NCBI GenBank assembly: GCA_951406725.2
Contig: OX597816.1
Span: 93,186,001 to 93,250,000 of the forward strand
DNA length: 64,000 nucleotides
Direction: 5' to 3'
Source: Octopus vulgaris
Lineage: Eukaryota
This document shows positions 14,502-61,794 of the stretch, piece by piece. The notes under the pieces are model-generated. The model saw only the letters and a list, made by a program, of their open reading frames with translations, did not search any database and was not told the DNA's origin. Position numbers and translations under genes: made by a program. How positions within the stretch are numbered: position 1 is the first letter of the stretch; each line of letters opens with the position of its first letter.

Positions 14502-15833
14502 AGGGGGAAAAACTAGAAGTAGTTGATAGCTTCCGTTATCTAGGTGACCAAGTCAGTAGTGGGGGTGGGTGCGCTGAGAGTGTAACTGCTAGAATAAGAA
14601 TAGCCTGGGCAAAGTTTAGGGAGCTCTTACCTCTGCTGGTGACTAAAGGCCTCTCGCTCAGAGTAAAAGGCAGACTGTATGATGCATGTGTACGAACTGC
14701 CATGCTACATAGCAGTGAAACATGGGCCGTGACTGCTGAGGACATGCGTAAGCTCATGAGGAATGAAGCCAGTATGCTCCGATGGATGTGTAATGTCAGT
14801 GTACTTATTCGACAGAGCGTTAGTGCCTTGAGAGAAATGTTGTACCTAAGAAGCATCAGTTATGGTGTGCAAGAGAGATGATTGCACTGGTATGGTCATG
14901 TGGCGAGAATGGATGAAGATAGGTGTGTGAGAAAGTGCCAATCCCTAGCAGTTGAGGGAACCCGTGGAAGAGGTAGACCCAGGAAAACCTGGGACGAGGT
15001 GGTGAAGCACGACCTTCGAACGTTAGGTCTCACCATGGAAATGACTAGAGACCGAGACCTATGGAAGTATGCTGTGCATGAGAAGACCCGGCAAGACTAG
15101 TGAAGCCATAACCCGTGGCCCCTACCTGGGACGTAGTCAGTCCACCTGTGCATACCTTCCTTCTTGTGACACTTGTGAAGACCTGTTGAGGCAAGTGAAA
15201 ATCAAATCAAATCAAAACAAATCAAAACAAATCAAAATAGATGAACATCAATGGAAATTGTATCCTTGTGGTACCAGTGCCGGTGGCACATAAGAAAACC
15301 ATTCGAACGTGGCCGTAGCCAGTACCGCATCGACTGGCCTCTGTGCTGTGGGCACGTAACAAACACCATCCGATCGTGGCCGTTCGCCAGCCTCGTCTGG
15401 CACCTGTGTCGGTGGCACATAAAAAACATCATCCGAGCATGGCCGTCTGCCAGCCTCGTCTGGCACCTGTGTCGGTGGCACATAAAAAACACCATCCGAG
15501 CGTGACCGTCTGCCAGCCTCGTCTGGCACCTGTGTCGGTGGCACATAAAAAACACCATCCGAGCGTGACCGTCTGCCAGCCTCGTCTGGCACCTGTGTCG
15601 GTGACACATAAAAAACACCATCCGAGCTTGGCCGTCTGCCAGCCTCGTCTGGCACTTGTGTCGGTGGCACATAAAATCACCCACTACACTCTCGGAGTGG
15701 TTGGCGTTAGGAAGGGCATCCAGCTGTAGAAACACTGCCAGATCTGACTGGCCTGACCCCAGTTGAACCGTCCAACCCATGCTAGCATGGAAAGCGGACG
15801 TTAAACGATGATGATGATGATGATGATGATGAT
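14502..15833 (+). mobile_element. 5'-truncated RTE-clade LINE (ORF C-terminus, 3' UTR, (GAT)n tail)
   Basis: LEVVDSFRYLGD...RIRIAWAKFRELLPLL...AMLHSSETW...WYGHVARM...RGRGRPRKTW to the stop at 15100 with one internal stop; ends ACGTTAAAC(GAT)n. Confidence 0.92.
15355..15669 (+). repeat. 63-bp minisatellite, about 5 copies, in the RTE 3' UTR
   Basis: Unit CATAAAAAACACCATCCGAGCGTGACCGTCTGCCAGCCTCGTCTGGCACCTGTGTCGGTGGCA at 15418, 15481, 15544 and 15607, with a variant copy at 15355. Confidence 0.92.
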
Positions 15834-15936
15834 ATATATTCCATGCTGGTTTATAAACACCTTCCAGGTTGCAATTGTTTTCATTCCAGCACACGATCTT
15901 AGATCAGGTCACTTGCTATGCAAGTACATCTCTGTA

Positions 15937-20700
<4,764 letters not shown>

Positions 20701-22142: not shown

Positions 22143-23063
22143 GGGCCAATCCCCTAATGCCACCCTAAACTTTAACTTGTCGATAAATATCAAACTGAAT
22201 AAAAAGTAAGCAACGTTTTGAAACATGAAATTCACCACAATATATTTCAACAATGCAGAAATGTTATTCACCAAAGTAAGTACCATTACAATCAGCACAT
22301 TTTTGCCAATGAGTTACAAGTTTGTTTATTCAGGTAACATAAAAATTTGGAGTTCTGGAGCTGATGAACTCGTTGAACGCACTTTCAGCATCGGCTTGAT
22401 TTTTGGATTCCTTCATTCGTACGAAACCATCAAGGTGTTTGAAAAAGTGGTAGTCGGTAGAAGAAATGTCTGGGGAATAAGCTGGGAGGAGAAGAACATC
22501 GTAGCCAAGTTCCCTCAACTTATGGAGCATCATTAGTGTGATCGAACATTGTCATGAAGAATGATTGGCCTTCTTCTGATGACCAGTCTGGGACGGAGGA
22601 GTAGCAGTTTTCCGTTCATTTTGGCAATTTCATGGCAATATGTTTCTGCAGTAATGGTTTTTCTGGGTTTTAAAATGTTATAGTGGATGAGTCCAGCAGT
22701 ACACCACCAAACAGTCACAGTAACCTTCTTTTTGAAGCGCTCAGGTTTAGAGAAGGTTTTCGGTGCTTCATTTTGGTCCAACCACTGAGAAGAACCTTTT
22801 ATTTTTATTATTGTACAGAATCCAATTTTCATCACAAGTTACAATACGGTCGAGAAATGGAACGTTCTGGTTACGGAGAAGAAGCGACAATCATATTTCA
22901 TATCTGCGCATTTTCTAATTTTCCTTCAAATCGTGTGGTACCCATTTGTCAAGCTTTATTGATTTTCCAATCGCATGCAAATGGTTGCAGGCAGTTTTCT
23001 AGCTAACTTGAAGTTCTTTTGCCAGTTCTCGAGTGGTTTTACATGAAACTTTCTCAATGACGA

Positions 23064-23651
23064 TGTAGTGACCCTATAGCGGTGCGCGCTCGCGCACCGT
23101 CCATTTGTATTTCGCGCGTGTTGGTGCCTTTACCAAGGCACAGAAAGGAAGGGCCCTCTCGCGCATGCGCGAACCACCGGAAGCACGACCCTGGCCAAGG
23201 CAGAGGGATCGTAGAACGTTTGACCGCTAGCAGCAGCAGCGGCGACTTGGGACAGCAGCGACCTAAGGAGCAGGACGTTAATATTTTCTCTCCGTTCGAA
23301 CTGATTCTAGCAGTCCTTACCAAAAGGCCTTTAACCTGGATTGTTGCAGACATCATCTTCTTCCTCTGGACGCCATTTTGACCCGTTCTGTTTTTGGCGG
23401 TGTAATATTGTAAATATTACAATCGATTAACTTTCAGCCTTGCGCGCCCAGAACCAAGGACATCAGATAACACACTTATTGTTATTGTTACCAAGAAAGA
23501 GAATAAAGTAGTTATATGTATATTTTACGTCTGCGTCTTGTTGTTTCTGACTGGTAGAATTCTGGATTATTAAAGCAACGGCTAGTGAGTGATTGCTTTC
23601 TTGTACCCCGAAAGTACAAGATAGATAAACACTCACACCAAGTTCGTTACA
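23064..23651 (+). repeat. 5' LTR, 588 bp
   Basis: TGTAGTGACC...TTCGTTACA; contains AATAAA near 23503; near-identical to 25189-25809. Confidence 0.95.
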
Positions 23652-25188: not shown

Positions 25189-25809
25189 TGTAGTGACCCT
25201 ATAGCGGTGCGCGCTCGCGCACCGTCCATTTGTATTTCGCGCGTGTTGGTGCCTTTACCAAGGCACAGAAAGGAAGGGCCCTCTCGCGCATGCGCGAACC
25301 ACCGGAAGCACGACCCTGGCCAAGGCAGGGGGATCGTAGAACGTTTGACCGCTAGCAGCAGCAGCGGCGACTTGGGACAGCAGCGACGTTAATATTTTCT
25401 CTCCGTTCGAACAGGACGTTAATAGGAGCAGGACGTTAATATTTTCTCTCCGTTCGAACTGATTCTAGCAGTCCTTACCAAAAGGCCTTTAACCTGGATT
25501 GTTGCAGACATCATCTTCTTCCTCTGGACGCCATTTTGACCCGTTCTGTTTTTGGCGGTGTAATATTGTAAATATTACAATCGATTAACTTTCAGCCTTG
25601 CGCGCCCAGAACCAAGGACATCAGATAACACACTTATTGTTATTGTTACCAAGAAAGAGAATAAAGTAGTTATATGTATATCTTACGTCTGCCTCTTGTT
25701 GTTTCTGACTGGTAGAATTCTGGATTATTAAAGCAACGGCTAGTGAGTGATTGCTTTCTTGTACCCCGAAAGTACAAGATAGATAAACACTCACACCAAG
25801 TTCGTTACA
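25189..25809 (+). repeat. 3' LTR, 621 bp
   Basis: Same as the 5' LTR except three substitutions seen by eye and one net +33-bp complex insertion. Confidence 0.95.
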
Positions 25810-26089
25810 ACGATCTTTAATTGACTGTCATCGATGACAGATGGGCTTCTACTACGCTCACGACATTCAAGGCTAAGGCCTTCACTGCGAAAGCGTTTAA
25901 ACCATTTTCGAGCTGACCACTCACTGGTTATTTCCTCAGCGAACATTTCGTTGATCTCACGGGTAGTTTCAGCTGCTTTATGTCCTTTCTCGAAGTTGAA
26001 TAGCAAAATTTCTCGAATATTGTGCTTTGACAGTTCCATTTCAGATGATTGTAACAACGGTGAAAAAATATCAAAAATTCCTCACAAGT

Positions 26090-41248: not shown

Positions 41249-43161
41249 AATATGTTTCAACACACGAACTCACATGAAGAATCTTGCAAACCAAACCCAA
41301 AAATAAAGTATATATATAGGGTGTACATAACGGAAGCAATTTTGAATCAAAATAGCCATCTATGTATCATACACAATATATATGCATCGTTGATGATAGA
41401 TCAGTTACTGCAGTGCTTATCCAGAGATAAGCTGTTGCATAGCTGTGCTGTCTTAAAAACATCCAATATTTATAGTATTTTTAACACAGCATGTCCAAAA
41501 GAGATTTTATCTCAGAACAAATATTGCAGTAACAGGTCTACCAATGATGTATATACATTGAATAGGTTACAGAGATGTGTGAGTGAGTGTGTGTGTGTGT
41601 GTAAAGGAAATGGAATTGGATAGAACTCAAAATTGAAACTAGGTTACAAAGTGGTCTTGACATGTGCTTACTTCAACAGTATTGGTGAATTCTCTTTAGT
41701 TATTTACATTCTCAAATCACTTACAAGTATTTTAACCTTATTTCTTTGTATAAATCAACCAGAATATTAGATGAATGTCCTAACTGCCCTTATTTAACAC
41801 CAACTGTAAAAGCAATACTGCGGGAGAAAAGATTTTTGCCTAATGTTGGCAGCTGAGGCAAAACAAATGCTTCTTATTGTAGGATCAGTAATAATTCCAG
41901 TTCTAGGATCTGCTAAGCTGCAGCAAACTATTAACTGAAATAATATACAGTATCATAAATTTGCTGTAACTATCCCTTAGGATCAATAAAGTGCAAAGTG
42001 ATGCCAGACTGGGACTAAATCTTGATTGTGTGCCAAGCAAAGGAAACAAATTATTTATGTTAATTTACGTTATATATGTATAAATTGCTATTTCTTTCTC
42101 TCCATGGCTATCTGCCTCTCTGTTTATCAACATGTACGTGTTATGTTTGCTTGTTTGTTTGATTTTTAATTTAGTGTGTGCATTGTGTGCACAAAAGGGC
42201 ATGTATTCTTGAGAGAACATAAATGTGTGTATAAAAACAGACAGACAGATACATACATAGGCATATATTTATATATGTATATGTGAGTGAATATATATGT
42301 ATGTATATACATGTATATATATTTATATATGTAAATGTCTTCATATATTTATATGTGTATATGTATTTAATATATATGTATGTATATGTATTTAAAGAGA
42401 GAGAAATACGTATATTGAACAAAGAAGAAATTAGATAGAGAAAAAGAGAGATTGAAATATAAATGTACAAACAAATAAAAATGCGAGCTATTTATCTGTG
42501 TTTATGTTTTGACATTTCAAAATTACTATGAAAGCTGAAATTATTGACCAATGAGAAATGTTTAGTTAAACAAGAGTGTTATGAGGTGTATGTAAGGTTA
42601 TAACTTATATTGATTTCAATTCACCAAAGTAACATAAAGCAGGTCAACTTTGACGTAGCTCAATCTAATCATCATTATTCACATTAAGTTAAACTCATAG
42701 ATGAACCATAAGTGCCCAGTAGCTAGTAGCGAATTAGGGTCACATTGTTGACACAAGGTCAGGGATAATGAATTGAGAACAGCAATATAAGCATTCAAGA
42801 CAGGTGGCTGCAGATGATGGCTATAGCCAGATACATATATATTGTGCACTGTATGGTTTTGTGGTAGAATATATGAGAGGGCTATTCGAAGCAACCATTT
42901 CACAATCAAAGGTGAGAAAGGTGGAAATAAAACATGGCTTGAGACTTAGTTCTATAACAGTTGCTGGTAGAAAACACACCAAAATTAAATATGTGATAAA
43001 CTGGCAGAAACAGTGGGGTAACTGACTAAATGATTTACAGTATTCATTCTTGTTTCCCAACATTCAAGGATCAAATCTCATAAGGGTTGATTTTCAATTT
43101 CATAATTTCAAGGTAAACAAAATACTCATCAGTAATAATTAATCTGCAAGTGTCAGTTTAA

Positions 43162-52259: not shown

Positions 52260-52770
52260 TTAAGACTTTGGATGCACAGCTAATGCTTTTATGGATCCCA
52301 CTACAAAGATAAATGAAGCAGTCAACATTGACATTCTCATCTGCTACCAAGACAAACAAAATGACATTCAACACCTCTAAATCAGTTGGAGCAAGGTTTT
52401 TTCAGCAAAAATATTTTCATGGACATCAAAGACTTCCTAAGCATATTCTATATGGAAATTGTGTTCTAGAAAAAGACTTCCTTACAAACCAAAATCAAGG
52501 TGCAAGGACTGACTTATCTAGTTGAAAAAAAGATAATATTTATGTATGAGGTTGAGAAATAACTGGAGTTCTTAAGACATCAAGTGGGTAAAACATTGAT
52601 TGTGTCCTTACATTTTGAAGAGAATCATATTAGATACCGAAAATTAAAATGAAACTCAAGGAAAGGAAATCACATTGATTTCCATAATTCCTTCAAGTAT
52701 ATCCACCCTATCACAAATATTGTCTATCTAAGGCCAATTTTTATTAGTCATTCTAGGATACATAAATAAA
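52260..52770 (+). mobile_element. Highly decayed RTE/BovB-like LINE remnant
   Basis: FSSATK...TFNTSK, RLPKHILYG, FEEN and terminal ISHSRIHK* resemble the RTE C-terminal consensus. Confidence 0.5.
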
Positions 52771-53163
52771 GCAAGTTAATAATAGATCTTTGCTAGCTGA
52801 AACGGCTAGTCATGGGAAAAAAATTATGATGAGTGAAATGATACATATTTGAACATAATGTGAAACATGATTCTGCAATACTTTTAGCTAAAGAGAAAAT
52901 TTAATATGGCAGTTGTAGCAAAAGCTAATGATCATCAACAGGACTAAAACGTTATCTTTGCTTCACAACTACATAGTTTTGGGTTCAGTCCACTTGTATA
53001 ACACCATGTACAACAGCCCAACAGCCTTGGGCTGACAATTGCCTTGGGCTGACAATTGCCTTGCGAGGAAGCTAGGCATATATGTATGTATTCATATGTG
53101 TGTGTGTGTATGTATATATATATATATATACTTTATTTTAAGCAGCAGAAAATTCAACAAAAT

Positions 53164-53201
53164 CTGTTACTCTGAGTTTCTCGTTGCCGTTCATCAGACA
53201 G
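53164..53201 (-). ncRNA. Minimal type I hammerhead ribozyme motif, mirror copy
   Basis: Exact reverse complement of 54298-54335. Confidence 0.72.
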
Positions 53202-54297
53202 TTTTTGCTAGAATGGAACATATATATTAATTCAATCTATACTCTTACAAACGCTACACCTTTAAAAAGAAATGGACTTGTTTGATTGGCCCTTTAGAAA
53301 AAACGGTCAATCTTCGAGCGATAAACAAAAAGGTCAAAAATATATGTATATAAATATAAAAAACTTATAAAAATTATAAAATCCGAGGAAAAAACCGAGG
53401 AAAAAACCTATTGCCGTTAATGAAGACAGTACAAATTAATGCATAGAAATTAAACCTGTTATAAATACTGCAATACATATTTATATTAAAATCCACATAT
53501 ATATATCAACATACACAAAAGGATGCGCGTAAACGCCATACATACATATACAGACGTATGAATATGAATCTAAATTATACACATAAAAGCATGTGTACAT
53601 ATATTCACGCAAACCGTCTCGCACGCAAGCTAAAATTCATCTATGTAGCAATTCTCATATACTGAGCAAGGAGGGGGAACGAAAGAAAGGGAAAGAGAGA
53701 AAAAGGAACGAAGGAGGGGTGGGGATCCCAGTGGGGTAACTGACTAAATGATTTACAGAAGGAGAGGTGGGGATCCCCACCCCTCATTCGTTCCTTTTTC
53801 TCTCTTTCCCTTTCTTTCGTTCCCCCTCCTTGCTCAGTATATGAGAATTGCTACATAGATGAATTTTAGCTTGCGTGCGAGACGGTTTGCGTGAATATAT
53901 GTACACATGTTTTTATGTGTATAATTTAGATTCATATTCATACGTCTGTATATGTATGTATGGCGTTTACGCGCATCCTTTTGTGTATGTTGATATATAT
54001 ATGTGGATTTTAATATAAATATGTATTGCAGTATTTATAACAGGTTTAATTTCTATGCATTAATTTGTACTGTCTTCATTAACGGCAATAGGTTTTTTCC
54101 TCGGTTTTTTCCTCGGATTTTATAATTTTTATAAGTTTTTTATATTTATATACATATATTTTTGACCTTTTTGTTTATCGCTCGAAGATTGACCGTTTTT
54201 TCTAAAGGGCCAATCAAACAAGTCCATTTCTTTTTAAAGGTGTAGCGTTTGTAAGAGTATAGATTGAATTAATATATATGTTCCATTCTAGCAAAAA

Positions 54298-54335
54298 CTG
54301 TCTGATGAACGGCAACGAGAAACTCAGAGTAACAG
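54298..54335 (+). ncRNA. Minimal type I hammerhead ribozyme motif
   Basis: CTGT-CTGATGA-ACGGCAACGA-GAAA-CTCAGAG-TA-ACAG: stem I CTGT/ACAG, intact core, short stem II (CG/CG, GCAA loop, A.A closing mismatch), stem III CTC/GAG, GUA cleavage triplet. Confidence 0.72.
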
Positions 54336-54437
54336 ATTTTGTTGAATTTTCTGCTGCTTAAAATAAAGCATATTACTCTACCACTGGTATTTGAGTACTC
54401 TTTTTTCCACCTTGTTTCACATTTATGTGTTTACACC

Positions 54438-54494
<57 letters not shown>

Positions 54495-54501
<7 letters not shown>

Positions 54502-55740
54502 CAAAATGGGAACGCAAAACATCTGGACAGCTAGGTGATACAAAAAAGGGACAACAAAACATCTAAATAGACGATACAAAGACAACAAGGACGGGTCATT
54601 CGAAGTTTTCTTTCATCGGTCAAGTACCAGATTTTCTTCGCAATATCGGCTGATTATTCTTGAGATTGCTCCAATATGGCCATCCCCAAGGAAAAACTAA
54701 GTTAAGAGCATTAGATTCCTTGGAAGAAAGCAGCGAATGTATACAGAAACAAAGACGGAAAAAACGGAAAATGTTACACAAATATAAATACAATAAAAAT
54801 AATAACAGGATATAATAACAGGTGTCTTTCGACTAAGGATGAATTGAATTAAGCTGGCGTGTGTGGAAATGAAGCGGAAAAAGGGTTCGAAATTTTGAAA
54901 ATTAAGGCAAGATTTTTGAAGTTGAAAAAATTTCTCATTTTTATGTATTTTTGCCTTTTATTTTTTATTGTTTACAGATTTCATTTTTTCTGAAAGAAAT
55001 TTACAGCTGCATGTAGCTCGTGTTTATTTGCATGGTCAATCGTCGAAAAATAAGTACTAAATTTAACAAAGAAATCCTTTTTTTCCTTATTTTTAATCGT
55101 TCAAATAGTGGAACGTACAAAAGGCAAGTGTGCTTTCCGTTGTCATTGCCTGGTATTTATGATTGAGCTTTCAAAATATTTTCTTTCCCAACTTACTGAA
55201 GATCTTTTGCTTTTTATAAATGGGAGAGAAATAGATAGAGAAAAATAGAGAGTAAGAGAAAGCTAGGGACAGTCTGAGAGAAATGAAGTGTAAGAGAGTG
55301 GGAAAGTGAGAGAGAAACAAAGAGGGAGAATGTGGCGATAAGAAACAAAGGAACCAACAGAAAGTAACAACCACACCCTCACCCGCGCGTAGATCGGGTC
55401 GCCATAAGCTAGCATATATATATATAAATACAAAATGGGACAAGAACTCAAAACATCCGGACATCTAGGTGATACAAAATGAGATAACAAAACATCCAGA
55501 CAGACGATACAAAGAAAACAAGGATGGGTCATTGATCTTTCAAAATAAGTTAAGAGCATTAGATTCCTAGGAAGAAAGTAGCGAATGTATACAAAAACAA
55601 GAACGGAAAAAAAAAACGGACAATGTTACACAAATATAAATACAATAAAAAAATACAATAAAAATAATAACAGGATATAATAACAGGTGTCTTTCGGCTA
55701 AGGACGAATTGAATTAAGCTAGCGCGTGTGAAAATGAAGT
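54495..55740. repeat. Two diverged direct repeats, probably PLE pLTR-like
   Basis: About 54495-54876 and 55420-55740 share AAAACATC.GGACA.CTAGGTGATACAAAA...TAAGTTAAGAGCATTAGATTCC...ATAACAGGTGTCTTTCG; the second copy lacks about 95 bp; each starts at a TA run. Confidence 0.8.
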
Positions 55741-57276: not shown

Positions 57277-57739
57277 GTGATGTTAGGCCTGGAGGACAAG
57301 GTTACTGTCCTCCAGGCTACAGTAGAGGAGGAGGAGGAGGAGGAGTATTGGCAAGGCCAATGCATCTCAATGGCGATGCAGGCGGAGGTTGTATCTAGAG
57401 ACATTGAGGATCAGCGAGGAGGAGAGGGTGATAGTGTTTGTGGAGGGCAGAAAGCCGAGGTGTTTCGGCTGCGGTAAAAAGGGGCACGTGAGAGCGGAGT
57501 GCCAACTTAGGCCGCAGGAAGCAGCACCGCCAGAAAAAGAAAAACCAGAAGCGAAAACACCAGAAACTACAGAATCAACAGAAAACAAAGAAGCAACAGA
57601 AACAACAAGCGGCGAGGAAAAGGAAAAAGTGGAGGGGTGGTCAAAAATCACCATGAAAAATACGGAAAACAGAAACCACCCCTCAGAAAGAGAGCCAAAA
57701 AAGGAGAAAAGAAACTACGAATACATTTATAGCCATTAA
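57277..57739 (+). pseudogene. LINE ORF1 C-terminal remnant with gag-like zinc knuckle
   Basis: VIVFVEGRKPRCFGCGKKGHVRAEC (CX2CX4HX4C) followed by an E/K/T-rich tail; frameshift near 57390. Confidence 0.82.
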
Positions 57740-58014
57740 GGCAGCCAACAACAGGCTAATTAACTTTTTGGCAGCTATGGCAAAGGTGGAAAAAATTTAA
57801 AAAAAACGAAAGACTTTATTGTTTATAGAATAGGCCGGAAGGATTACGGACGGATAAAGTCCGAATTTTTTCATGACGTGGACCCTCTGAGATTGGACAA
57901 ATCTCCATATATATACGAGGGCCTGCGTCGGACTCCTCCACGAGCCCAGGAAAAAGAAAGTGAAGAAAAAAGTGAAGAAAAAGAACAAGTCGAACCACTG
58001 ATATAAGGTAAGCC

Positions 58015-61000
58015 GTGGATTACATTTATGTTGGTTGTTTAAATGTGCGCGGCCTGGGATCAAGCTGGAAGCAAGGCCGTTTCCTTAATGATATCAGGTC
58101 GCGTAATTTGGATGTTATTGTTGCTACAGAAACCCGGTTAGAGGGACCAAGAGGTCTACTCCCGCTGTTTGACGGCTACGAGAGTTTTTTCTCTCCGGCC
58201 AGTCCTACCGGCGGGGGTGGGGGTGTTGGTCCTATTAAAAAGAAACCGGGTTTTTGAGAAAAAGTTAATTTTTTCAGATCCAGAAGGTAGGCTGGTCGTC
58301 ATGGATTTGACGTTCAGTAACGGTAAAGTTATCAGACTGGTTGCAATTTACGCACCCAACCAAAAGATGCAAAGTGATTATTTTCGAGAGCTAGAGAAGT
58401 TTCATGGTACTTCACATTCATTAGTTGTGCTAGGAGACTTTAACACAATTTGCAAACCGGATGTAGATTGTGTTGGCTTGCGTCCAGATAGAAAAGGCAA
58501 CATCGGCTTCCTGGAACTGCTAAGCCGCTTTGAGCTAGCAGATCCTTATAGGTTGGAATTTCCGAACGCCCCATTGTGGACATGGTCAAGCAGCGACGGA
58601 TCTTCCAGGTCATACATTGATAGGATACTAATTAGAAAAGTAGACAGAAAAATAGCTAAGTGTCCAGTTTTACCTGGTCAGCTACAGTGATCATAAAATG
58701 GTCACTTATAAGCTTGACATAGATAAGGTTAATAATAGAGGCTCCGGTTATTGGAAACTTAATACGTCCCTTTTGACGATTAAGGAGTACAGAGACCGGA
58801 TTAGTGCTATAATTCAGAGGGCGCTATCTGGTGCCATCATTAATAACAAATGGTGGTATGCCCTCAAGCAAGCCATCAAATTCGAGTCTATTAGATATAG
58901 CATAGGATTAGTGGCTAGAGAGGCTAGGAGGGAATTAACTCTAGTTAAGGAATTAGAGGAAGCCTTGAAAACTGGCTCTGCGGCTCAGGTGACGGCCAAG
59001 AGACTGGCGTTAAACCAGCACCTCGAGGCCAAACACATGGGCTGCATTGTCAGGGCTAGGATCCGCGCAATGGGTTGTGAAGGAATCAACGCCGTGAGAT
59101 GGGCCCGAGTGGTGGAAGCTCAGCGTGGTAATGATGCCACAATTCGATCTTTGATGAACCAACAAGGTAAGTTGATAAACGAAGCCGAGGAGATGTGTGA
59201 GGCCTTTCAGGAGCACTTCGCTCAGCTTTTCGGTGGGGGCAGCGGACTGAATAGAAGGAGGGTCTTTACAGACCTCCTCGACGGGCTGCCGCGCCTATCG
59301 GGGCGAGATGCGGAGGGCTGTGAGGGGCCAATCACTCCTGAGGAGGTGGTTGAGGCGATGGCGTTCTGCGGCGTGGGCAAGGCGCCGGGTTTGGATCGTC
59401 TACCCTATGAGTTATATAAGAGTATGCCAGACTTGTTCGGTCACCTACTGACGGAGGTCTATGCGAACTGGCAGCAGAACGGGCTTATACCCAGATCTGT
59501 GCGCCGGGGAGTAGTGACACTTGTCAGAAAGGACCCGAGCAAGGGGAAGTGCATTGATAGTTTCAGGCCCATCACTCTGCTAAACACAGAGTTGAAGATT
59601 TTGGCCAAAGTGTTATCGAAAAGATTGGCGCGTGTCGCAGATGGTCTGATCCGGGAGGCACAGACATGTGCCGTTCCCGGTAGATCCATTCAGGATAATC
59701 TCCATCTTATGCGGTACACTATAGAGGGGTTTAATAGTGATTCTGACAAGGGTGGGACACTGGTCCATTTAGACCAATCTAAAGCATTCGACAGGGTCGA
59801 CCATCGCTACCTGGTGTCTGCCCTGGCACAGTTCGGGCTGGGCCTTGGCTTCCTCAGGTGGATTATCCAAATTTATGATAACATCGACTCGGTAGTTCGG
59901 GTGAACGGCTTCTTTTCGAGGCCGTTCAACATCAAGCGCTCGGTTCGTCAAGGGTGTCTGCTCTCTCCGCTTTTGTACGTGGTGGCTCTTGAGCCACTAC
60001 TGCGAAAACTGAGCGGCATCCCGAGACAGCCAGGTTGTGGAAAATCGGTGTCAGCTTACGCGGATGACATCACCATCATCGTAACCGAAATGGATCACCT
60101 ACAGAGGGTAGGCAAGGCCATAGAGGTTTACGAGACGGTGACAGGAGCAAAGATTAATCGTGAAAAGTCAGTCGGCTTGCAGCTCGGCACCTGGAGAGGC
60201 AAGTCGATGCCTCCTGACAGCATCGTGGGACGTTGGATGGAGGGTCCGATTAAGTTGCTATGGGTTTGGTTCGGACCAGACCTCCAAATAGAGAAGAACT
60301 GGGGCGAGGTATCGAGCCTGGTCTTGGCGGTGGCTATCCCTGAAAGGAAGGGTGGAGGTAGCCAATGTGTTTATCGCATCGGTTATCACCTACCGCCTAT
60401 CCGTCGTTCCTTGCCCTGATTCGTGGTTGATCAAGTTGGAAAGACAGCTCTTCTACTTCTTGTGGAAGGGCGGGAAACCACTTGTGAAACGCTCTACTTG
60501 CTGTCAACAACCGTTAAAGAGTGGACTAGGGATACCTTGGCTGATGATGCAGACATGCGCTGAGGTTAAGACATCTGTAGCTCTACCTGGATGGTGAACG
60601 GGTGTGGTCTCCGCTAGCAAAACTGATGTTTCCCAAGTTCACTAGTTTCGGTGGATGGGAAACCTGGCTGAATCGTAGATCGAAACTGGGCACATGGTGC
60701 ACGAAGTGTCGCAAGGCTCTCCTGCTATTCCGTCGCTCGGGCAACGCCTGCGGTTGGGGTTCCACCACATTCTTCTATAGGGGGTTGGTAGAGGCGGAAT
60801 GTGAAGATACCTTAGGGGAAGCCCTAGGTCTCGACGATAACCAGCTGGCCAGTCTGTTCCAACGTACATTCGGGCCGAAGACCCTGGACAACTTCCAGAA
60901 GTCTCTGGCATGGCAGTGTTACAGAGGAGCTCTACCTGTTCGGGATAAACTCGCAAGGCACGGTGGCCAAGACAGTCCGATATGTCCAAGATGCGAGCGG

Positions 61001-61384
61001 GATAGGGAAACCGTCCCGCACGCTATTGTTCATTGTTCGGTCGTGTCAGAGGTGTGGGTTTATGCCGAACAGCTGTTGTCAAGCACACGAAGAGTACAGC
61101 TGTTGAATGAGTCTATTATAAAAATTGACCCACCAGATTTCCTCGCGAAAGAAGGTAAGAATTGTTTTCTCGTTGTAGTAGCAATTGCGAAAGAGGTGAT
61201 TTGGAAGACTAGGATGAAAGGTTTACGGTCAGGTAAGTTCATCTCCGGCCCTGGATTGATGAATTACTTCATCTTTCACCTAAAAAGGAAGATAGGACTG
61301 GAGAGAAAATGCCTGACTAAGAGAGTGTATGAAGAACGATGGAAGGATGTAGCACGAAAGTTGCGAGTGGATGATACCACATAA
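58015..61384 (+). pseudogene. LINE ORF2 (AP endonuclease, reverse transcriptase, zinc-binding), frameshifted
   Basis: APE: CLNVRGL, ATET, AIYAPN, LGDFN, YIDRI, SDH. RT: KAPGLD, FRPITLLN, DQSKAFDRVDH, SVRQGCLLSPLLY, AYADD. C-terminal CPRC..ETVPHAIVHC. Split over five ORFs. Confidence 0.93.
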
Positions 61385-61794
61385 ATGTAAAACTAGACGA
61401 AACCAAAGTATCAGTGGGGAGGCGGGGCTCGTGGGGTCCGAGCTAAATCCGCTCCCACTCCATCCGTAATGTCTTCCGGTCTGTTCTTCATTCGATTTTA
61501 TATTTGTAGTTTTTGAATTTTTAAAACTCATCTTTGTATAACCCCATTCGTGTATCTGACCCCACATCAGATTGTATTGTCCCCTCTATGTTCGCCCCTA
61601 GTGGGTAATAATAAAACAATTATTTAATATCTATTATTTATATTATTATTCTTAAATATTTGACGTTACATTTAAACTAAATTTCAATTACAATTGTGTA
61701 ACGTACAACAATTTAATTAAAAATCTAAAGTATCGTATTTTAACCAATTAATATTATATATTTTGTATGACTAAGTGCTAATATAATTATAATT

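Follow-up and report, generated by a model that had tools for sequence, protein, structure and literature searches.

A 30-nt filler matching single-copy host DNA 10.7 kb away at the apex of a Penelope-like head-to-head insertion in Octopus vulgaris

That Penelope-like elements can carry a truncated copy in inverted orientation, with a tail on one side, is already described (Craig et al. 2021, PMC8557442; PMC3846280). Copying of nearby DNA into junctions has been described for other systems. L1 insertions may carry sequence templated from DNA near the insertion site, with three insertions in one study (PMC11702581) and 22 cases, typically within 15 bp, in another (bioRxiv 10.1101/2024.08.27.596794). 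Polymerase theta leaves direct and inverted templated insertions of 3–30 bp, mostly with <2 bp of microhomology, and distal templates account for <0.1% of its repair (PMC7165422), while a survey of MMBIR limited its template search to within 100 bp (PMC8421209).

The insertion analysed here lies in a 64,000-nt stretch of the Octopus vulgaris genome (contig OX597816.1), hereafter the window. It resembles the Hydra clade in its reverse transcriptase (RT) with C-terminal endonuclease, its RWK, DKT, CxCX5C, CxxC and CxH motifs, its (TA)n targets, its inverted 5′-truncated copy and its tail at one end, but the tail is ~70 nt long here as opposed to 30–40 nt, and the available text on that clade describes no distant host DNA as filler between inverted copies (PMC8557442). 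With L1 it shares a short piece of near-site genomic DNA copied into the junction and opposite-facing cDNAs joined end to end (PMC11702581; bioRxiv 10.1101/2024.08.27.596794), whereas L1 templates are typically <250 bp and within 15 bp and the donor here is 10.7 kb away; in addition, the insert here sits internally, between two arms, and belongs to a Penelope-like element. Scars of polymerase theta are similar in their 3–30 bp size, their direct-repeat and snap-back classes, their repeated rounds and the little microhomology that we see in the family's fillers, but distal templates are very rare there and the element's own RT is an alternative here (PMC7165422). In Adineta vaga, Penelope elements likewise show head-to-head inversions, junction palindromes attributed to self-priming and capture of host DNA, although the captured spacers are 0.9–1.5 kb or whole genes between pseudo-LTRs, in contrast to a 30-nt patch from one local donor (PMC3846280). 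In R2, too, the cDNA 3′ end uses itself or nearby target DNA for priming ahead of the join, but with one cDNA and the immediately adjacent rDNA, unlike the two arms and the donor kilobases away in our case (PMC11371274). Templated inserts at L1 junctions and in theta-mediated end joining (TMEJ) are known; what is unusual here is that a Penelope-like element shows a reach of 10.7 kb. Our literature search, which covered listings and passages of main texts, returned no report of kilobase-distant host filler at a Penelope inverted junction.

The features of the locus are listed below (window positions).

43011–43040, + strand: filler donor, single-copy host DNA (exact match, genome-wide count and 251-nt query)
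53078–53130, no strand: left simple-repeat flank ending in (TA)n, the putative insertion target (family ends adjoin (TA)n in inspected copies)
53131–53725, − strand: left arm, an antisense 595-bp element 3′ end without tail, with no private variant relative to the fetched copies
53710–53729, + strand: first copy of a 20-bp unit across the palindrome centre (last 16 nt of the arm plus TCCC), with one exact genome-wide match
53729–53758, + strand: 30-nt filler, copy of 43011–43040, its end bases common to the adjoining element sequence
53758–53777, + strand: second copy of the 20-bp unit, with one mismatch
53774–54368, + strand: right arm, a sense 595-bp 3′ end with the same truncation base as the left arm and two near-private substitutions
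54292–54341, + strand: hammerhead-like motif in the pseudo-LTR (CTGATGA...GAAA...GTA plus closing stem), found by eye and mirrored in the left arm
54369–54438, + strand: family tail of ~70 nt, in which the next unit begins, carried by the right arm alone; in locus L077 it is contiguous with the unit start
54439–54496, no strand: right (TA)n flank

The original prediction described two 595-bp arms with an exact, co-oriented 30-bp copy of upstream sequence between them. The arms are confirmed, with two internal differences between them (53589/53910 and 53713/53786). The copy was likewise borne out by sequence comparison, since 53729–53758 and 43011–43040 agree at 30 of 30 positions on the same strand, with no extension possible on either side. 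In the 2.8-Gb assembly the 30-mer has only two exact matches, donor and apex (reversed control: 0), so it is not common genome-wide. It also falls outside the family sequence, with a longest match of 9 nt to natural element references. The donor region is single-copy, as a 251-nt donor query matched only its own site and the apex (2 of 2 candidates). Donor and filler are 10,718 bp apart; the composition-based chance expectation for the 30-mer is ~1e-8 per genome, and the chance of a single-copy donor falling within 10.7 kb is ~8e-6. A unique donor at this distance supports the earlier claim of a templated filler from a nearby cis locus.

Unambiguously foreign bases in the filler number 28, as the C at 53729 is common to TCCC and the G at 53758 is common to the re-copied arm sequence; both donor joints overlap by 1 nt. 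The GTGGGG noted as shared is indeed present in donor and apex, but it lies 3 nt inside the donor and is in register at neither joint. Among random 30-mers from the window (15,964 draws), a 6-nt match to the 20-bp unit occurred within the first 10 nt in 0.9% and anywhere in 3.8%. As for the predicted re-copying of about 20 nt of the arm, the duplication exists, but its arm part is only 16 nt (53758–53773, with one G-to-A mismatch) and becomes a 20-bp direct duplication of 53710–53729, with the same single mismatch, once the following TCCC is counted. This mismatch is absent from 210 family arms, and no arm base has been lost at the palindrome tip. On this sequence, the apex reads best as two copies of the 20-bp palindrome centre with 28 net foreign bases between them. 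We regard the filler as a single repair scar, with no sign of a function.

The arm sequence is highly repeated, with at least 41 matches at 99–100% identity among the matches listed (from 1382 candidates) and 3172 exact genome matches for a 28-mer from its outer end. Other copies run past the truncation point in the window into a 3.37-kb unit, and the full unit in L077 encodes an open frame of 727 aa with 1938 homologues at E ≤ 0.001. The 727-aa protein itself matched no Pfam family, and among four homologues scanned GIY-YIG (PF01541) was above cut-off in one, a top match, with no Pfam match in the other three. Its sequence contains RLRWKAFF, NSDKTRN, CNCKNESSC, CRLC and CRH (corresponding to RWK, DKT, CxCX5C, CxxC and CxH), and (TA)n flanks were found at element ends in the copies inspected. 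The element has the features of an EN+ Penelope-like element: a single ORF with RT plus a GIY-YIG-type endonuclease at the C terminus, a pseudo-LTR from a partial tandem, an inverted 5′-truncated copy and a tail at one end. Its motifs and (TA)n targets agree with the Hydra clade as described in the available text of PMC8557442, and against this description they identify a putative Hydra-type Penelope-like element. The RT/endonuclease frame and its homologues thus support the Penelope-type origin that had been proposed. The palindrome is no special element; it consists of two 5′-truncated 3′ ends, placed head to head, from a young retrotransposon of Penelope-like type. The ORF and the one-sided tail led us to reject a DNA transposon with terminal inverted repeats, and a search of solved structures gave no match.

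The core of the hammerhead-like motif at 54292–54341 was judged against what we take to be the hammerhead consensus. Rfam returned no hammerhead match at E up to 5, and the fold z-score of the motif was −0.01. Rfam matches to microRNAs were rejected as hairpin noise under the gathering scores.

To place the window among its relatives, we surveyed stretches around the family copies listed first by several patterns; these lie mostly on contigs 1–4 and form a non-random sample (L-numbers denote loci). Of 114 two-arm insertions, 104 had one tail, eight had two and two had none. Within the one-tail class, the tail-less arm was longer in 42 insertions, the tailed arm was longer in 31 and the two were within 20 nt of each other in 31. 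At a diagnostic variant site the two arms agreed in 52 of 52 pairs. The normal form of this family is a head-to-head pair of arms, one of them tailed and the other tail-less. Where the tail-less arm is the longer, simple fold-back of one cDNA without later loss is impossible, which fits two priming events. This agrees with in vitro work, as presented in the available text, in which a Penelope-like protein cut both strands and extended them, with two RT start sites bounding the tail (PMC11167929). At L162:4470-4615, equal truncation is combined with a 144-nt element-derived spacer, and the new junction is inverted on both sides, so that one arm was copied through a junction formed in that same event; fold-back copying thus occurs as well. 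A second young Penelope family (L255, L254-L273), with a 782-aa frame and cysteines within the endonuclease core, repeats the head-to-head, one-tail, (TA)n pattern.

Many copies of the first family are palindromes of 120–200 bp with apices concentrated immediately 5′ of the hammerhead-like motif; they may mark a hotspot of stops or form a sub-family that is non-autonomous. Five loci have the same self-complementary 4-nt junction.

Among 141 head-to-head junctions, 59 had an overlap of at least 2 nt, 52 were near blunt, 11 had 2–7 extra bases and 19 had at least 8 extra bases. By inspection and longest-match tests, 18 of these 19 longer fillers were re-copies, snap-backs or other element pieces, the shortest being too short for firm placement. 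Unique host DNA was the filler at 1 of the 141 junctions, that of the window, and at 0 of 16 head-to-head junctions in the second family (20 loci). The suggestion that apex spacers across the family would be of local origin thus failed in the sampled test. Local capture is therefore a rare single event and no family rule, and the case for locality has a sample size of one.

Processing of ends without host DNA is more widespread. Re-copies of 9–23 nt of the arm end were found in equal pairs (L043, L083, L107) and in an unequal pair (L135), and snap-back fillers in L037, L141, L177 and L212. In another unequal pair (L155:4386-4456), a 10-nt arm end is re-copied in tandem about seven times, a pattern that recalls telomerase-like addition of repeats. 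Solo ends without a palindrome have re-copies as well (L199, L203, L194); donors for solo ends are assessable inside each fetched stretch. Mismatches are frequent in re-copies (window, L107, L155), which fits new, error-prone synthesis.

Copies of local 18-mers were found beside 9 of 37 5′ ends, compared with 232 of 2820 controls. Two of the matches in this screen came from the window and two from an internal tandem re-copy, the others being repeats. Several further candidates for local filler were rejected. A 215-nt filler (L208:4430-4644) with a copy 1.35 kb away belongs to the second young Penelope family, with 100% identical copies elsewhere; a 51-nt filler beside (TA)n (L189) is a repeat with 17 matches and ~10% mismatch; a 23-nt filler (L216) with a copy 1.04 kb away is a tandem repeat with 1203 matches; an 18-nt filler (L197) matches only itself and has no donor; and the candidate in L080 is a subfamily variant.

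Some 5′ ends are joined directly to other repeat families (L208:4430-4644, L185 near 7007, L179 near 3505 and L108 near 2208). The partner pieces are of Penelope type in L208 and L185, and some direct joins are then followed by (TA)n. It is possible that these cross-family joins are template switches or mixed head-to-head pairs. A tRNA-like insertion (by eye) lies at L208:1581-1664, in one arm of a host inverted duplication whose other arm lacks it.

We favour the reading, at a probability of roughly 0.55, that the filler arose during the joining of the two cDNA ends at integration, by polymerase-theta-like activity or by RT template switching. What can be seen is the outcome, a putative Hydra-type element inserted in (TA)n with tailed and tail-less arms head to head. 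In the proposed sequence of events, the endonuclease would cut (TA)n and cDNA would extend from the cut ends; both arms would derive from the same RNA, or one would be copied from the other, with both ending at the same base here. A free 3′ end would then undergo short aborted rounds of synthesis, the first few bases by fold-back, jump to the donor via a 1-nt overlap and copy 30 nt, and jump back via a second 1-nt overlap to re-copy the centre with one error, after which fill-in and ligation would fix the spacer. The acting enzyme could be either a host polymerase theta-like enzyme or the RT of the element, as the sequence gives neither the enzyme nor the first strand. The 10.7-kb reach probably reflects local proximity, and is rare. 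Copying of non-element genomic DNA of the L1 type is directly visible in the filler, and we infer that it took place during integration.

Integration-time joining is favoured since end processing without host DNA, in the form of re-copies and snap-backs, recurs across the family. The sizes of the fillers, their direct and inverted classes and their short overlaps match polymerase theta scars as far as the available text describes them (PMC7165422), and the element's RT could leave them too. The window filler resembles TMEJ inserts (3–30 bp identical to other DNA, short microhomology, repeated rounds) in its 30 nt, its 1-nt overlaps and its adjoining re-copy, but TMEJ templates lie within tens of bp, and with the donor 10,718 bp away only the 20-bp re-copy is locally templated. 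Since published templated inserts, in the texts available, are nearly always within ~15–100 bp, a reach of 10.7 kb is atypical for either enzyme. Two further points count against synthesis at integration: the double GGGGA|TCCC centre is simply explained by a pre-existing perfect palindrome, and equal truncation and filler showed no association (4/17 against 14/84, Fisher p=0.5).

A later event at a perfect 595-bp palindrome is the main alternative, a real but less likely one. It would involve an off-centre opening of a cruciform or hairpin on both strands, or a replication stall 4 nt past the tip with restart 20 nt back, and TMEJ or FoSTeS/MMBIR-type switching would add the 28 donor nt. The apex has precisely the form that staggered opening or stall-and-restart gives, a direct duplication of 20 bp across the centre; two switches suffice, and the donor is co-oriented. 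Templated repair of family copies after insertion also appears to occur, given that a truncated 3′ end (L216:6437-6490) is pieced together from element sequence and the flanking 850-bp tandem repeat, which is consistent with it. On the other hand, the arm bases at the tip are intact, and the mismatch in the second copy, which none of the 210 family arms has, would not be needed with pre-existing overhangs. Furthermore, long near-perfect family palindromes persist without filler (L222, L084, L074). The break at a cruciform tip that the original prediction put forward fits the 20-bp duplication, but it is not required, because asymmetric pairs show the same re-copying, as do solo copies, which lack a palindrome.

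It is unlikely that the RT instead jumped to a local RNA at its free 3′ end, for instance an intron that was excised and ended at 43040, and used 30 nt of it as template. The donor ends in CAG, and we counted in favour of RNA capture its CTGAC, which we take to be a branch-like motif. Directly after the donor, 72 nt (43041-43112) are open in one frame and end at a GT donor-like site. Nonetheless, the pyrimidine tract is weak (6/12), YAG is present at 3% of positions, and the site failed a simple exon filter that eight other places in 38-57 kb passed. The 38-aa frame gave only five matches at 31–43% identity, the one inspected being a repeat protein; neither protein nor RNA evidence backed the 72-nt stretch, and no host gene was identified. 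The 1-nt overlaps would fit end-to-end jumping, as would the joins to pieces of other repeat families in L208 and L185, and R2 5′ junctions with extra RNA templates are reported in the available text of PMC11371274.

An assembly or chimeric-read artefact at the palindrome is very improbable even though the apex is known from one assembly only, as a fold-back read cannot create two differences between the arms and a tail on the right arm only, the re-copy pattern is common to other loci, and the window is without any N. Contigs from four public DNA runs compared with 52300-55300 count neither way; the left-flank contigs differ from the window or break before 53081, and among those listed none lies over the apex or bridges an empty site.

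The available texts of PMC11167929 and PMC8557442 call for experiments on how Penelope-like elements finish integration and form inverted structures. The family gives sequence constraints on these steps: the arms come from one source (52/52), either arm may be longer, and a junction newly formed in one arm can be copied into the other (L162). The joining step would run through aborted rounds of synthesis and rarely reach 10 kb along the chromosome. What makes the filler valuable is that, as a marker, it opens the joining mechanism to testing at the ~3,000 element ends of a single genome. A more speculative idea, which we consider unlikely, is that Penelope-like integration intermediates stay open for so long that a cDNA end can find templates, whether DNA or nascent RNA, at kilobase distances. 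In that case the occasional host filler among the thousands of inverted junctions in genomes of this kind would preserve, like a fossil, germ-line chromatin contacts or excised intron ends as they were when the element inserted, and the telomerase-related RT itself would have written it. The broader idea of the original prediction, that spacers of this type may record local contacts, has one case in 141 behind it.

Other features of the window were observed in passing. An AT-rich simple repeat of ~5 kb with long internal inverted pairs occupies 15800-20700. A duplication of several hundred bases in translated frames links ~23057-23570 and 25400-26000, the second copy with a short internal rearrangement. 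On the + strand, 57300-61400 contains open frames of up to 587 aa with endonuclease- and RT-like stretches, which we presume to be LINE-like.
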